A stretch of DNA of 64,000 nt from a virus: positions 2,318-66,317 of the IMG/VR virus record IMGVR_UViG_3300040801_002513. The stretch is one strand, 5' to 3'. The position numbers and the translations under genes are program-made. Positions 40,329 through 61,480 of this stretch are shown here, piece after piece (position 1 is the stretch's first letter; the number at the start of each line of letters is the position of its first letter). The notes under the pieces are model-generated. The model made no database searches. It was not told the DNA's origin and saw only the letters and a list, made by a program, of their open reading frames with translations.

Positions 40329-40622
40329 TTAGGCCCCCAAAGTTAAATTTTATCTTTTGCTATACTAGGGTTACTTAATAGTAATGGTCGAAAGAGTAAA
40401 AAATACGATAATTTATAGCGAGTGGTACCCGATCTCTATATAGGGGGTAAATTCGCATTTTTGTTTATTATAGCCCCCTTTGCTGTATTGTTACTCTCTT
40501 AACAGCTAGTGGTACTTCTTAACGAAGTACAAAGAAGAGACATAAAAAGCATGTCTCTTATAGACAAAAACACCGTCTCAACTTCGAGACCCCCCCCCTC
40601 CCCTTCAACTTTGGAGAATATC

Positions 40623-40925
40623 ATGAAATCTACCTACGTATCAGCATCACAAATTCATTGGGGCCACGACCTGTTTCAACTAGAGCCTGTTAGTTTCAAC
40701 GAGGCTCTCGAGGACTACTATGAATCCATGAAGGGTCAGAGGATCAGGGCAAAGGCGTACCGCTTCAACGGTACTGGCCTTGCTGAGAAGTTAAATGAGT
40801 ACTACCCAGAGGAGTTCAGAAGGACCTCTGCAGGTCTGTTACTGGCCTTCGTATATAAAGGCATCCCTATGGATGTCACTGTAGACGGTAGAGGCCAGTA
40901 CTTCAGGCTTTGCGAGGATTATTAA
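40623..40925 (+). CDS. Hypothetical cassette protein
   Basis: Start reassigned to the ATG after GGAG (MKSTYVSASQ). Confidence 0.7.
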   Translation: MKSTYVSASQIHWGHDLFQLEPVSFNEALEDYYESMKGQRIRAKAYRFNGTGLAEKLNEYYPEEFRRTSAGLLLAFVYKGIPMDVTVDGRGQYFRLCEDY

Positions 40926-40931
40926 CCTTTC

Positions 40932-40973
40932 CTGTACCGCTGCCCTTCGGGGTAGTGGTACAGCTTTTTGAAG
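40932..40973 (+). terminator. Representative cassette element: terminator-like hairpin (cUUCGg loop, G-U pairs, CTTTTT) fused to the putative promoter motif
   Basis: CTGTACCGCTGCCC-TTCG-GGGTAGTGGTACAG-CTTTTTGAAG; identical copies at 41365 and 43143. Confidence 0.8.
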
Positions 40974-41024
40974 GAGCAACGGCCATGTGGGTCACCGCTC
41001 CATAACTCCAATCAGGAGATTGTT

Positions 41025-41357
41025 ATGAAAATCGAAATAGTTCAGTCCATTCATGGTATCGACGTTGTTAGCGTAGATGGTGTTAAGTCTTCCAAAGCTG
41101 TAGCCGAGATAGTTCTAGAGGCCGTCAGCCGTATAGAGACAGTTAGAGAGCACGAGGCTAACATAGCGCCACTTACACCCGAGGAGCAGTACGACCCATG
41201 TCAAGGCTGTAATGGCCTTGGCTGTGAGGCCATGTGTGCTGCTGAAGGTGGCGTTCCTGGCTCAGATATGGCCTGGGGCCCTGAAGACGGCAACTGCTGC
41301 CCATGCGGTGGTACCAGCTGTGACGGTACCTGTGGTAACAACAGGCCTCCGTTCTAA
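41025..41357 (+). CDS. Hypothetical protein with Cys/Gly-rich C-terminus
   Basis: ATG after AGGAG; CQGCNGLGC...CCPCGGTSCDGTC. Confidence 0.7.
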   Translation: MKIEIVQSIHGIDVVSVDGVKSSKAVAEIVLEAVSRIETVREHEANIAPLTPEEQYDPCQGCNGLGCEAMCAAEGGVPGSDMAWGPEDGNCCPCGGTSCDGTCGNNRPPF

Positions 41358-41457
41358 GCCTACACTGTACCGCTGCCCTTCGGGGTAGTGGTACAGCTTT
41401 TTGAAGAGGCAACGCCCATTCGGGGCACCGCCTCACCTTCCTACTAAGGAGATCATC

Positions 41458-41712
41458 ATGGCAAATACACAAAGCGACCTTTTTTCCTATTTCTCTGACC
41501 TCTACAAAGAGGTTAATGGCTCTCGCCCTTACGGTGAGTTCTTCTCCAATCTGGATGATTGGGAGATTCAGGATTGGTGTATGCGGTTGGAGTGGCAGCT
41601 CCAAGAGGAGCAAGACCTCTGTGAATGGGCTGAGGCCCACATGGCAGAGGAGGTACGTTGGGACGCCATGCAAGCTGACCCGTCGCCCGACAAGTACGAG
41701 GCTTACTGTTAG
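41458..41712 (+). CDS. Small acidic hypothetical protein
   Basis: AAGGAG RBS; FSDLYKEVNGSRP. Confidence 0.7.
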   Translation: MANTQSDLFSYFSDLYKEVNGSRPYGEFFSNLDDWEIQDWCMRLEWQLQEEQDLCEWAEAHMAEEVRWDAMQADPSPDKYEAYC

Positions 41713-41852
41713 GCCTCACCTGTACTGCTGCCCTTCGGGGTAGTGGTACAGCTTTTTGAAGGAGATACGGCCCAATGCGCAATTCTGTGCATGGATGGGA
41801 GCTACACTGTCTCTATCACTCCACGGCCCCTCATAGGGCAAGGGAGAGCACC

Positions 41853-42155
41853 ATGGCAATATTATCCCTCATCGGTTGTTACCTCGTAGACGACGTTCTT
41901 GTTCCAGCTAAGGCTCAAGAGATAGGCAAAATCAGCTACTTTGTTGACACAGTAGATGATGTACCTAATGTGTCTATCGCAGTACGTAAGCGCCATCAGC
42001 TTACTACAGCCAAAGGCTCCTCTGAACCTGTATCTATAGGTATCCCTACCCGCAAGGGTACACTCTACGCCTATAGGCAGAACGGGTACTACATCGAAGT
42101 TCAGATGAAGAAAATGGTTGCCCATCTAACATTTCAAAAAGAGATGAAGAGGTAA
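41853..42155 (+). CDS. Hypothetical cassette protein
   Basis: GGGAG RBS; bounded by cassette elements. Confidence 0.65.
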   Translation: MAILSLIGCYLVDDVLVPAKAQEIGKISYFVDTVDDVPNVSIAVRKRHQLTTAKGSSEPVSIGIPTRKGTLYAYRQNGYYIEVQMKKMVAHLTFQKEMKR

Positions 42156-58889: not shown

Positions 58890-59051
58890 CCAACTAACAT
58901 CCTCATCTCTACTAATAAAAATGGGGATGGGGATGGGGATGGGGAATAGTGGTACTGCTTTGTGAATAAAAAATTAGCTAGAATGTATCTGGCTTAGATG
59001 TAAAAACAAACACGCCTAAAATGGGCAAAAAACAACACAAGGAGATTTAAA

Positions 59052-59390
59052 ATGAAAAAGATTATCGCCGCTATCGCAATCGCTCTCTGTATGGCCGCCT
59101 CTTCAGCTTCTGCAATCGACGTTAACACCGCTACTGCCGAAGAACTCGACGCATCTCCACTCATGAGAATGGGAAAAGTCACTTCAATGAAAACAGTTGC
59201 AGAACGTGACCTGAACGGACCATTCAAAGACGCAAATGATTTGATGACTCGCGTACCAGGAATCGGAAAAATGTTCATCACCAACAATGCCGCAGAACTC
59301 CAATTCTCAAATGTAGAAACCGCACCCAAAGTAACGCCAGCAGCAACAACAACCGCACCTGCAGCAACTGCAACACCTGCCGCACAATAA
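59052..59390 (+). CDS. comEA: Secreted ComEA-like helix-hairpin-helix DNA-binding protein
   Basis: Signal peptide; IDVNTATAEEL...ERDLNGPFKDANDLMTRVPGIG. Confidence 0.75.
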   Translation: MKKIIAAIAIALCMAASSASAIDVNTATAEELDASPLMRMGKVTSMKTVAERDLNGPFKDANDLMTRVPGIGKMFITNNAAELQFSNVETAPKVTPAATTTAPAATATPAAQ

Positions 59391-59541
59391 ACAATCCTGA
59401 TCTAACCGTTACCACCGCTTGCATAGGGTGGTAACATAACTTTTTACAAATACCAAATTACTAAATCACTACCATTAACTATTACTACAAGGATATACTA
59501 AATGCAAGACATCGTACAACAATCCAAAAGAGAGAAACCAT

Positions 59542-59745
59542 ATGAAAACCACAACTACCAGCAAACTAATCAATATCAGATTAAAACTTAAAAACATTAA
59601 CACAACTAACCACATAAAAACTAAACCTCAACTCTGTCCACATTGTCTAGCAGAACTGATTCGTTTCTCAGATGATTGGACACCACCTATATGTGAAAAC
59701 CCTGTATGCCCTTTAAACAACTACACACCAAAAGGCCACTCATAA
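59542..59745 (+). CDS. Small Zn-ribbon protein
   Basis: CPHC...CENPVC. Confidence 0.5.
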   Translation: MKTTTTSKLINIRLKLKNINTTNHIKTKPQLCPHCLAELIRFSDDWTPPICENPVCPLNNYTPKGHS

Positions 59746-60107
59746 TGAACAAACTACTAATTCTTACATGCGTTATAATAGCAATAGCTTCAAAATCATA
59801 TGGGGCTGGCTTGGGAGGAACTGTGTATGTACCTAACCTACATGCTAAATGCTTAAGTACCCATCAAAAATGCATATTAGAATGTGCATCAGATCCAGAA
59901 AGTACATGTACTAATGAAAGCATAAATGAAAAAGCAAAAACTTGCGCAGAAGCATGTATAGAAGAGTATGTAGCATGTGAAGAACTGCTAGACAAGTTAA
60001 AATGCATGAACAGCTATGTACCAGTAAAACCAAGAAACACCAAAGTAGATGTAGAAGCTATATTCAAAAGAATCGAGGAGGAAAATAAACACTATGAAGA
60101 CGGTTAA
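59745..60107 (+). CDS. Secreted Cys-rich protein
   Basis: Signal peptide; CxxxC repeats. Confidence 0.6.
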   Translation: MNKLLILTCVIIAIASKSYGAGLGGTVYVPNLHAKCLSTHQKCILECASDPESTCTNESINEKAKTCAEACIEEYVACEELLDKLKCMNSYVPVKPRNTKVDVEAIFKRIEEENKHYEDG

Positions 60108-60363
60108 AAATATATTAGCAGTAGTATTCTTGCTAATAGTACTATTTAGAGTAAGCTTAAGCTTCGGAAGTCAGCAACAAGCTGAACTGTATGCAGAATG
60201 TGGGCGAATTCAAAATAGCTGTCAATCACAGTGCGTACATATAGAGTTAATAAACCAACAAAACCCAAAAGGAGTTATAGCCTGTAATCCAAAAAACAAC
60301 AGAATATCTCAATGTAAAAATATCTGTTATACCAACTACATAAGATGCAGAGGAGGTAGATAA
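60094..60363 (+). CDS. Secreted Cys-rich protein
   Basis: Signal peptide; Cys spacing similar to the upstream ORF. Confidence 0.6.
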   Translation: MKTVKNILAVVFLLIVLFRVSLSFGSQQQAELYAECGRIQNSCQSQCVHIELINQQNPKGVIACNPKNNRISQCKNICYTNYIRCRGGR

Positions 60364-60372
60364 GGAGAATCT

Positions 60373-60978
60373 ATGACAAAGAAAAAAAAGATAAGTATAA
60401 TACTAGCTATGATAGGCACATCATTCGTTGCAGGTATGTTTAAAGTAGAATCACCACTAACAGATGATAGGAGGAAAATAATAAGACTAGTAGTAAAACA
60501 TCCAGATATATTTAGATACGCAGAAATAAGAAGAAACTTCATGGTTAAAACCTTAAAAACCTGCGATGATCTAAATGAGAGTAACTTCAAAAAATATGAC
60601 TTTGGTGACACACTACTATCTTCAAAAAATGGTTGTATAGACAAAGTAATACATACAATCAGACAAGGTGTAGTAAATACATCAACATTAGACACCAACA
60701 CAGGATATGCTTCACTGTACATAGGTAATACTTCTAATAGTTTTCAAATAAACTCAGTAGGAGAAGAACTAAAAGGAGCAGAAGCACAAACATACATGAA
60801 CAATATTGAAAAACTACTTAGAGCTATACCAAAAAATGTACCTGATAAAGCTACTCTAAAAGTATTAAATATTGCATCAGTTGCATACTTTGATGACTTC
60901 GCAAATATCAAATATGTAAAAGACTATCAAGCAGAAAAACTTGCTGAAGAGGGAATACCATATAGAGGACAATTCTAA
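60373..60978 (+). CDS. Hypothetical exported/membrane-anchored protein
   Basis: AAGGAG RBS; N-terminal hydrophobic segment. Confidence 0.65.
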   Translation: MTKKKKISIILAMIGTSFVAGMFKVESPLTDDRRKIIRLVVKHPDIFRYAEIRRNFMVKTLKTCDDLNESNFKKYDFGDTLLSSKNGCIDKVIHTIRQGVVNTSTLDTNTGYASLYIGNTSNSFQINSVGEELKGAEAQTYMNNIEKLLRAIPKNVPDKATLKVLNIASVAYFDDFANIKYVKDYQAEKLAEEGIPYRGQF

Positions 60979-61480
60979 ATCCCAACTAAGCCAAGCATCT
61001 AGACTAGAAATACTAGATGCTTGGGAGTTGGGGATTTGGATAGTGGTATCAGGCTATTTTTTTCCAAAGGCATACAGAAGCAATCCGAATGAGTGTATTC
61101 TGGACTTGGGGAGTAGTGGTACTGGGAAGTGAGGTTATGGAGTCTTGGGAATTGAGTTCTTCTCTAACAATATAGATAAAAAGAAAACTAAAGAGGAAGC
61201 ATGGAAACTACTGCTACAGAAGACATTACAAACTACTTGATAAAGAACTACTCTATTAGAGGTAAAAGAACTATTTTTATTACTAGAGGTACAAAATTTA
61301 TTTGCCAGGAAGACTCATCCTAGTGTTACAGTCTAAAACACAAAGACTAGGCGATTTGCTTGCTATTGGACCGGGAGCGGTTTTCATTTCTGCAACTATT
61401 TTGGAAACGATGAAAATAAAAATAAATTTTAAACTGGGGAGGTTAGTTAATTAAACAAAAATTTTCACCCTGAGAGATAA

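Follow-up and report, generated by a model that had tools for sequence, protein, structure and literature searches.

In T4-type phages, small variable genes are flanked by composite early-promoter/stem-loop (PeSL) units, as set out in the available parts of two reports (PMC2839356, PMC4122927). The stem-loops may overlap promoter boxes and contain G-T pairs, according to the available part of the first (PMC2839356). In phage phiEco32, the promoters of gp36 consist of a single 9-bp element, tAATGTAtA, without a -35 box, and transcription starts 6-8 bp downstream, in the accessible portion of their description (PMC8948821). Here we describe the 22-base motif TAGTGGTAC-N8-GA(A/G)G, which recurs 29 times in a 64,000-base stretch of viral DNA, bases 2318-66317 of the 66,317-base virus record IMGVR_UViG_3300040801_002513; the whole stretch is called the window throughout. 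The anatomy, conservation and covariation of the motif are directly visible in the DNA, and it is probably an overlapping terminator-promoter cassette of a new sequence type, belonging to a new clade of jumbo phages.

A similar organization is observed in PeSL and in the window: composite units, terminator/promoter in PeSL and putatively so in the window, flank small variable genes in a plastic region, a Shine-Dalgarno site and start codon come next, and the units go together with a shuffled gene order. Indeed, a hairpin and T-run overlap the 9-base core in 19 of the 29 copies, and the Shine-Dalgarno site and ATG lie 30-99 nt past GAAG. On the other hand, PeSL promoters are sigma-70-like, with -35, -10 and AT-rich upstream sequences, whereas the window has an invariant 9-mer, always placed in the 3' arm, and no sigma-70 promoter at the motif copies; moreover, its phage is unrelated to T4. 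With the gp36 promoters the motif shares a single 9-bp element, the lack of a -35 box and TA.TG at positions 1, 2, 4 and 5, the other five of nine positions being different; its putative start, 8-9 bp downstream, would be about as close as the 6-8 bp there. Relatives of the window phage also carry phiEco32-like COOH-NH2 ligase genes. However, neither the window nor the motif-bearing fragments yielded a gp36-like sigma, and the sigma factor of one relative, G007, has region 2 and 4-like parts in a genome without the motif.

The motif lies on one strand and has a near-constant internal spacing

Genes at 1-40328 of the window lie on the minus strand (the structural arm) and are followed, from 40623 onward, by about 46 plus-strand genes, mostly small. 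All 29 motif copies, 23 of them with the exact core, are on the plus strand at 40507-61114 and precede plus-strand genes; none occurs in the opposite-strand structural arm, and two overlap the last codons of a small upstream open reading frame (ORF). The consensus reads TAGTGGTAC-WGCTTTTT-GAAGG. With at most one mismatch allowed, the core has 68 matches against 20.3 expected (standard deviation 4.2), a number reached in none of 100 shuffles. A weight matrix of 24 positions and 35 bits, built from the 23 exact copies and used with a cut-off of 14 bits, detected 29 sites on the plus strand and none on the minus strand (best score 9.0), and 200 shuffles yielded 35 such sites in total. The copies, with two terminators that lack the core, are as follows.

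Copy 1, 40507-40528 (+): core TAGTGGTAC, spacer ttcttaac, GAAGT; no hairpin, no T-run
Copy 2, 40932-40974 (+): 14-bp hairpin 40932-40963, TTCG loop; core 40953 in the 3' arm; CTTTTT, GAAGG
Copy 3, 41365-41407 (+): hairpin 41365-41396, core 41386
Copy 4, 41720-41762 (+): hairpin 41720-41751, core 41741
Copy 5, 42178-42199 (+): second register, stem AGCTGTACCA/TGGTACAGCT; core TAG in the loop, still conserved
Copy 6, 42664-42707 (+): hairpin 42664-42696, core 42686
Copy 7, 43143-43185 (+): hairpin 43143-43174, core 43164
Copy 8, 43559-43603 (+): hairpin 43559-43592, core 43582
Core-free terminator 1, 43955-43996 (+): 14-bp stem GCACCACACCTGGC/GCTAGGTGTGGTGC at 43955-43986, T-rich tail
Copy 9, 44050-44071 (+): degenerate core TAGCAGTAC, spacer agcttttt, GAAGT; no hairpin
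Copy 10, 44258-44279 (+): exact core, no hairpin; within the last codons of a small ORF, gene at 44320 downstream
Copy 11, 44495-44516 (+): hairpin type, whole core paired, -26.5 kcal/mol
Copy 12, 44895-44916 (+): hairpin, second register
Copy 13, 45319-45340 (+): hairpin, second register; leader hairpin with ATATC loop
Copy 14, 45913-45934 (+): core TAGTGGTCC; compensating GGGCC in the 5' arm
Copy 15, 46422-46464 (+): hairpin 46422-46452, core 46443
Copy 16, 46806-46849 (+): hairpin 46806-46838, core CAGTGGTAC at 46828
Copy 17, 48107-48128 (+): hairpin type; unit paralogous to that of copy 8
Core-free terminator 2, 48453-48494 (+): stem at 48453-48484, the same as at 43955-43986
Copy 18, 48575-48596 (+): exact core, spacer aacctctt, GAAGT; no hairpin, no T-run
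Copy 19, 48757-48778 (+): exact core, no hairpin; one base past the stop of a 44-codon ORF, SSB gene downstream (ATG 48844)
Copy 20, 49479-49501 (+): core TAGGGGTAC, second-register hairpin, GA at N9
Copy 21, 50133-50176 (+): hairpin 50133-50166, core 50155
Copy 22, 52077-52120 (+): degenerate core TGGTGGTAT at 52099; hairpin starts at 52077
Copy 23, 52345-52366 (+): exact core; weak interrupted stem; leader nearly identical to that of copy 21
Copy 24, 53140-53187 (+): core 53166, no hairpin; GGGGATGGGGATGGGGAATGGGG (53140-53162) upstream, G-quadruplex-capable
Copy 25, 54644-54690 (+): hairpin 54644-54676, core 54668, GA at N9
Copy 26, 56207-56228 (+): core TAGTGGTCC, compensating GACC in the 5' arm; spacer gggtgttt, GAGGC
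Copy 27, 57831-57852 (+): no hairpin; GGGGAGTGGGGAG upstream; spacer tgctcctt, GATGG
Copy 28, 58923-58968 (+): core 58947, no hairpin; (GGGGAT)3GGGG (58923-58944) upstream
Copy 29, 61114-61135 (+): no hairpin; TTGGGGAG upstream; spacer tgggaagt, GAGGT

Counted from the first T of the core, the GA starts 17 bases on in 27 copies; the other two (cores 49479 and 54668) have it 18 bases on. This bears out the near-constant spacing noted in the original prediction, made from the sequence alone, including its two exceptions (placed there at 49463 and 54644). The spacers without a T-run that it had listed at 40507, 48575, 56186 (core 56207) and 61114 are all present as well.

Two known promoter types with which this spacing had been compared do not fit. 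The sigma-54 consensus is TGGCAC-N5-TTGC, in which GG and GC are 12 positions apart. TGGTAC-N6-TTGA of the motif resembles it, with the same two-block look of GG and G(A/C). However, the G-to-G distance is 13 positions, one base too long, in all but two of the 29 copies, which have 14; it is also 14, two bases too long, in the hairpin-type copies of the relatives G002 and G003. In addition, the motif has GA where the consensus has GC, other bases replace the -12 region in hairpin-less copies, and no enhancer-binding activator was found in the window, so that a -24/-12 promoter of the sigma-54 type is scarcely credible. The resemblance to an extended -10 box of sigma-70 fails too: TGG-TAC is there, but as sixth base the 23 exact copies have 14 C, 6 T, 2 G and 1 A, so that the would-be T at -7 is T in just six of them.

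Hairpin copies keep one arm fixed

In 19 of the 29 copies, a strong hairpin with a T-run behind it has the core as its 3' arm. The stems comprise 13-15 pairs and the loops 3-7 bases, 5-7 T follow after 0-2 bases, and 55-nt segments fold at -12.6 to -32 kcal/mol. The stop codon of the upstream gene is located 23-41 nt before the core. With a G+C-rich hairpin, an immediate U-tract and a position downstream of a gene, these 19 copies are, judged by such features, intrinsic terminators. Two registers are used. The commoner one pairs the whole core, for instance in CTGTACCGCTGCCC-TTCG-GGGTAGTGGTACAG; in the second, the stem is AGCTGTACCA/TGGTACAGCT and leaves the core's TAG in the loop, where it is conserved all the same.

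Covariation was assessed in 33 fully paired hairpins from 12 sources, namely the window, G002, G003 and nine metagenome loci. Pairing amounts to 97.4% of 461 cells, a level reached by none of 500 shuffles. Among the nine core pairs, 42 changes are one-sided, 41 of them on the 5' arm, and only two are double; all the one-sided ones put A/G opposite T or C/T opposite G and are thus G.U-compatible. The five flanking stem pairs, in turn, show 20 double changes. One-sided changes in the core together with two-sided changes in the flanks indicate that the core is under sequence constraint beyond RNA pairing. It follows from this pattern that the RNA helix is selected along its whole length and that its 3' arm is fixed and must be read as sequence. 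Since the 9-mer is conserved whether paired, looped or unpaired, its reader likeliest sees double-stranded DNA. We also considered avoidance of a perfect 5' arm, which would be an antisense core, and rejected it: one such arm was observed among the 33 hairpins against about 3.3 expected, which is not significant.

These hairpins bear on the possibility, raised in the original prediction, that the motif is recognised as an extruded hairpin as in N4; an injected virion RNA polymerase would then read it. N4 promoters have short stems and 3-base loops. In favour of this, 19 copies have a hairpin that coincides with the core, the RNA polymerase of the clade is unusual and the genes concerned look early. 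However, the hairpin is dispensable, being absent from 10 of the 29 copies, and asymmetric: in 32 of the 33 hairpins the core includes one to three G.T wobbles, and each becomes an A.C mismatch on the template strand. Stems of 13-15 bp with loops of 3-7 bases are unlike those of N4, and no N4-like giant polymerase was found, the largest ORFs being a tape measure and an intein-bearing terminase. We consider an N4-type promoter highly improbable, and this part of the prediction is not supported.

Core and terminator are separable

Ten copies have no hairpin, and several of these have no T-run either. Besides those at 44258, 48757, 53166 and 57831, where the missing arm had been recognised from the start, they are the copies at 40507, 44050, 48575, 52345 (with a weak stem), 58947 and 61114. 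Copy 1 is located in the 294-nt divergent intergenic region 40329-40622, before the first plus-strand gene (ATG 40623), and has no upstream plus-strand gene to terminate. In G002, G003 and contig L231, too, the series opens with a copy that has neither a hairpin nor a T5 run. Furthermore, each of the core-free terminators (stems 43955-43986 and 48453-48484) is followed after 65-90 nt by a hairpin-less core copy (44050 and 48575, respectively); therefore, terminator and core are separable modules.

GGGGAG or (GGGGAT)n precedes the copies at 53166, 57831, 58947 and 61114. The only two G-quadruplex-capable sequences of the window are (GGGGAT)3-4 tracts at 53140-53162 and 58923-58944 (+), 2-3 nt upstream of hairpin-less cores, and one such tract occupies the same position in G002 (L082:19028). 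In G011, a 70-kb fragment from another metagenome, two GGGGAG-TAGTGGTAC-TGGCTTTT copies head gene strings. In four phages (40439-40449 in the window; G002, G003 and L240) we also observed TATAGGGGG 30-70 nt ahead of the first core copy, possibly as a separate upstream element of that promoter.

The motif could still be a family of terminators only, spread by cassette duplication, with a 3' arm that is invariant through recent descent or gene conversion. The good hairpin and T-run of 19 copies would suit this, as would the clear paralogy of some units (copies 8 and 17, copies 21 and 23). It leaves unexplained, however, the ten copies without a hairpin, several of them without a T-run, and a first copy that has nothing to terminate. 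In addition, the core has stayed constant across 12 sources with proteins at 31-63% identity, in which the flanking pairs and 5' arms have diverged freely, and other terminators, in the plus-strand arm as well as the minus-strand arm, have unrelated stems. A terminators-only origin thus appears distinctly unlikely.

Folded leaders follow the motif and sigma-70-like sites are not enriched

A leader of 30-99 nt separates GAAGG from a Shine-Dalgarno site and ATG. The Shine-Dalgarno site is strong (AAGGAGA), is often paired with an upstream CUCC and is followed by the ATG. In the minimum-energy fold, the first paired base of the leader falls within nt 1-5 of the proposed start in 23 of the 29 copies, three of these 23 folds being weaker than -3 kcal/mol. 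One leader may serve as an example.

Example leader, 40970-41027 (+): GAA, stem-loop GGAGC...GCTCC, AACTCCAA, AGGAGA Shine-Dalgarno, ATG 41025

This layout recurs after most copies. As a side observation, one kind of leader stem-loop begins at the fourth base past the proposed start and has a 9-bp stem with free two-sided covariation. A pentaloop, AUAUC (or AUUUC/ACUUC), is recurrent in it and commonest in G002-like phages (for example, window 45336-45365 and L082:8899-8928); this hairpin may be a protein-binding or stabilising element. A search of Rfam found no family at the motif copies or leaders.

Sigma-70-like sites are not enriched in the plus-strand arm (37 versus 41.5 +/- 6.6 expected), the motif copies show no -35/-10 match, and no other conserved element is present between the T-run and the leader. 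Given the strong terminator hairpins (-21 to -32 kcal/mol in 55-nt folds, 5-7 T), the downstream genes need promoters of their own. Collectively, the hairpin-less copies, the one-sided covariation, the leaders that run from GAAG and the absence of sigma-70 enrichment are indirect sequence evidence for a role beyond termination. To this extent the original idea of a phage-specific promoter in a terminator arm stands, in that the core plus GA(A/G)G appears to do more than terminate and has a promoter-like position; its likenesses to N4, sigma-54 and an extended -10 are not supported.

Two further explanations have to be weighed against these data. First, the motif could be a site of RNA processing or stability, so that a long transcript from about 40507 would be cut in the U-rich strand between hairpins to give protected monocistronic mRNAs. 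RNase III makes such cuts in the T7 early region. Most copies do have a U-rich stretch between two stem-loops, and 5'-terminal stem-loops would stabilise processed ends too. However, hairpin and U-tract terminators should halt most transcription first, copy 1 is without an evident upstream transcript, and a 9-mer that is kept whether paired, partly looped or single-stranded better fits recognition of double-stranded DNA; we find this explanation quite unlikely. Second, the core could be the site of a phage DNA-binding protein, either a regulator or a factor of recombination and cassette shuffling, the promoter being weak or elsewhere. The high information content of the 9-mer, the GTAC-containing repeats (TAGTAGTAC, AGTACT) that fill the non-coding region 38760-39420, the shuffled gene order among relatives and, as a weak lead, a 190-aa HTH-like protein encoded at 49554-50123 could be cited for it. 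On the other hand, strict orientation on one strand and a constant distance to the leader start are typical of promoters and needless for recombination, and there is no other promoter-like conservation between terminator and leader, which leaves a binding site of this sort with a low probability.

The core is conserved among diverged relatives

The core is unchanged among phages whose neighbouring proteins are 31-63% identical, and gene order is shuffled between them. Twenty of the 46 plus-arm proteins match fetched parts of relatives, one at 84% identity. The latter, a 164-aa protein (45395-45889, +), has its counterpart in G002, next to neighbours at 31-63%, and would fit a recent exchange of a single cassette. 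Motif-bearing relatives comprise G002, G003, G011, contigs L231, L222, L255 and L294, and other metagenome contigs. G002 has 15 motif sites and G003 has 8, each set being confined to one strand. The spacing is N8 in the window, L231, L222, L255 and two of the three L294 copies, and N9, with one more T, in hairpin-type copies from G002, G003 and a further seven contigs; hairpin-less copies in the N9 relatives mostly stay N8.

The core is not enriched in the distant jumbo relatives G006-G010. In G007, a complete relative of 268,764 bases without the motif, there are no conserved terminator arms and no over-represented intergenic word, the sole repeated 12-mer being a coding tandem repeat. A pattern scan of viral sequences that required 5 T gave no match, a 14-base pattern gave mostly chance single matches among the matches listed, and a literature search for the 9-mer gave primers only among the matches listed. 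A 264-kb metagenome contig has three pattern matches with the same spacing as the three of G002 and appears to represent nearly the whole genome of a G002-like phage. The scan of genome contigs gave 12 loci; 11 of them are in unrelated genomes and look like single matches due to chance. The twelfth is L294, a 3.4-kb contig binned with a metagenome-assembled genome of Fodinibius sp. (halophilic Balneolales), which has three true copies along with SSB and macro-domain homologues. This binning is the sole lead to a host, and a weak one.

The portal protein of the window has relatives at 57-85% identity, all metagenomic. Their contigs are either 38-62 kb long and rated 15-24% complete or, for several others, 234-269 kb long. 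From these sizes and ratings, the record represents part of a jumbo phage genome of roughly 250 kb. A DNA similarity search against isolate phages found no match for the window, and its portal protein matched only Bacillus siphophages among them, at about 21% identity.

Candidate readers of the motif

G007 encodes a protein of the sigma-70 family (Sigma70_r2 4.6e-7, phrog_351 1.1e-15; RpoD, RpoS and SigA in the structure bank). It also encodes a polymerase of 1102 aa, whose beta-like barrel spans about residues 361-473 and whose beta'-like barrel spans 742-824, and G011 has a gene of the same kind.

Two-barrel RNA polymerase gene, G007 L089:4211-7519 (-)
Two-barrel RNA polymerase gene, G011 L288:16118-19378 (+)

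This family of single chains of about 1100 aa has 235 members at E 1e-5 or better, on metagenomic contigs of up to 330 kb; the best 120 of the 235 were listed, and 25 of those were aligned. TNxHGNKG in the beta-like part and DFDGD in the beta'-like part are invariant or nearly so in the 25 aligned members. Among solved structures, the family profile hit bacterial beta at 1.2e-4 and, at 0.009, the beta' subunit of the AR9 non-virion polymerase. A tblastn search for the two-barrel polymerase in 50,697 isolate phage records gave no match. The 7667-aa ORF of G007 was also considered as a virion polymerase and was ruled out by its tape-measure domain.

Promoters of the T7 type are contiguous over about 23 bp, conserved from -17 to -9, AT-rich from -5 to -1 and start at G. 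The motif is alike in its conserved upstream part, its AT-rich stretch, its putative start at G and its many near-identical copies per genome. It differs in that the corresponding polymerase (PF00940) was not found: there was no match in G007, G006, G009, G002 or G003, a weak negative since control genomes gave none either, and none among 96 ORFs of G007 or the scanned ORFs of the window, whose genome is incomplete. Another enzyme to be compared is YonO, whose promoter was undefined as of 2017 according to the available part of PMC5467207 and which has counterparts known in two jumbo phages, in the part available of PMC7824862. The 1100-aa single chain with two barrels encoded by relatives of the window resembles it. 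However, YonO has a single start site, from which late genes are transcribed, whereas the genes headed by the motif are many, small and non-structural.

It could then be supposed that TAGTGGTAC-N8-G is the promoter of the two-barrel polymerase, which would be delivered in the virion or made very early and would drive some 30 monocistronic units. If so, this would be the first promoter defined for that class of polymerase, written into the 3' arms of terminators, and G-quadruplex-forming tracts would replace the hairpin at some sites. In G011, however, the polymerase gene lies 10 kb downstream of a motif copy, in an unbroken gene string headed by that copy. Because of this location, the reader of the motif is probably present before the two-barrel polymerase is made, unless the polymerase is packaged, and we regard this supposition as unlikely.

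A reader specified by the phage, as the original prediction had it, is plausible. Relatives do encode a sigma factor and a two-barrel polymerase, the motif-bearing G011 among them for the latter, and both are candidates.

Proposed terminator-promoter cassette

What we propose for promoter activity, start site and polymerase is drawn from sequence comparison. The invariant TAGTGGTAC would lie at about -17 to -9 of the start, with a five-base T-rich stretch just before it, and initiation would occur at the G or A of GA(A/G)G. The resulting mRNA would open with a stem-loop within its first five bases and carry a strong Shine-Dalgarno site 30-99 nt downstream. In 19 of the 29 copies, the same bases would end the preceding gene, as the 5' arm pairs with the core in RNA, G.U being allowed, and the T-run serves as U-tract. 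At sites that need no termination, or have another terminator, the core would stand alone, often after GGGGAG or (GGGGAT)n. The reader would most likely be the host core polymerase with a specialised sigma-like factor, by analogy with phiEco32 gp36, and less likely the clade's own single-chain two-barrel RNA polymerase.

Several observations weigh against this proposal. The identity of the core could come partly from duplication, recombination or gene conversion, rather than from selection on each copy. The distance from core to GA shifts by one base between sub-lineages, which weakens the argument from fixed spacing; the shift fits flexible start selection. Leader-fold z-scores are modest (+1.1 to -4.2), and the family of leader hairpins with an AUAUC loop, 96.3% paired with 34 double compensatory changes in 18 sequences, was picked for folding, which biases this covariation count. 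As to the reader, the RNA polymerase or sigma genes suggested from the start were found in relatives (sigma in G007, polymerase in G007 and G011), but scans of the window ORFs found neither. The fetched fragments of motif-bearing relatives, all incomplete, gave no sigma homologue, and G007, the relative with a sigma factor, has no motif. The motif-headed string of G011 speaks against the two-barrel polymerase as sole reader unless it is virion-delivered. Finally, all three sequencing runs that contain the window sequence are DNA and come from one microbial-mat study.

Should the proposed cassette be borne out, an uncultivated jumbo-phage clade would have a new promoter of high information content, defined by about 30 natural variants. 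These variants would amount to a natural experiment in which a signal at the DNA level freezes one arm of a hairpin and the other drifts through G.U-compatible states, and would illustrate how a terminator and a promoter share bases. A short, defined template would make the specificity of the clade's transcription proteins testable in vitro, and the terminator-promoter-leader unit could be put to use as an insulated expression cassette. Mobile regulatory cassettes, an idea developed for PeSL, would then extend beyond T4-like phages. The stakes would be higher only if the motif proved to be the promoter of the clade's two-barrel polymerase.

Other features of the window and its relatives

The minus-strand arm encodes a portal, a major head protein, a terminase with inteins and LAGLIDADG domains and a PhoH-PIN protein. 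Few genes of the plus-strand arm could be named: SSB, a macro domain, a cell-wall hydrolase, NADAR with DUF488 and a helix-hairpin-helix protein. A search for relatives of a 524-aa protein found none.

Several loci of the minus-strand arm carry inteins or endonucleases. The terminase large subunit is broken up by intein and LAGLIDADG domains (23925-28190), a dNMP kinase has a LAGLIDADG insertion, and a free-standing homing/HNH endonuclease adjoins the head genes.

Intein, LAGLIDADG or homing endonuclease locus, 23925-28190 (-)
Intein, LAGLIDADG or homing endonuclease locus, 30662-32083 (-)
Intein, LAGLIDADG or homing endonuclease locus, 16880-18283 (-)

At the start of the record, a frame of 1592 codons (window 2-2449, -, and on to the first bases of the record) has no stop before the record ends and is probably part of a giant tape measure. 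In G007, the 7667-codon ORF at 148970-171973 has a PhageMin_Tail domain, which implies a very long tail.

Three repeated sequences other than the motif were seen. TATA(A/G)TAGTA occurs eight times on the minus strand and three times on the plus strand, several times before structural genes (for example, 4559, 9865, 18426 and 36196), and may, as a weak suggestion, be a second, late promoter class. The non-coding region 38760-39420 is crowded on both strands with AGTACT and TAGTAGTAC-type words, which differ from the core by one base, and a similar cluster lies at the arm junction of G003; possible roles are those of an origin, a packaging site or an operator array. A tandem repeat with a unit of roughly 36 bp (...AGTAGTAATATAGTGKTAGTTTAGATTTTGAGT...) is present about six times from 63730 to 64000, the end of the record. 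The unit contains TAGTGGTAG, a near-copy of the core, and the repeats may be iterons or the cause of the assembly stop.

The only Rfam match of the window is EGFOA RNA (RF02955) at 38322-38450 (-), with 42.1 bits versus a gathering score of 37.7, and it sits at the edge of a 1.1-kb non-coding region. Probable counter-defence genes are present among the motif-headed units, namely the macro domain and the NADAR plus DUF488 fusion (50484-50930 and 54724-55500, +), and G007 encodes an Apyc1-like anti-Pycsar nuclease (L090:12549-13322).

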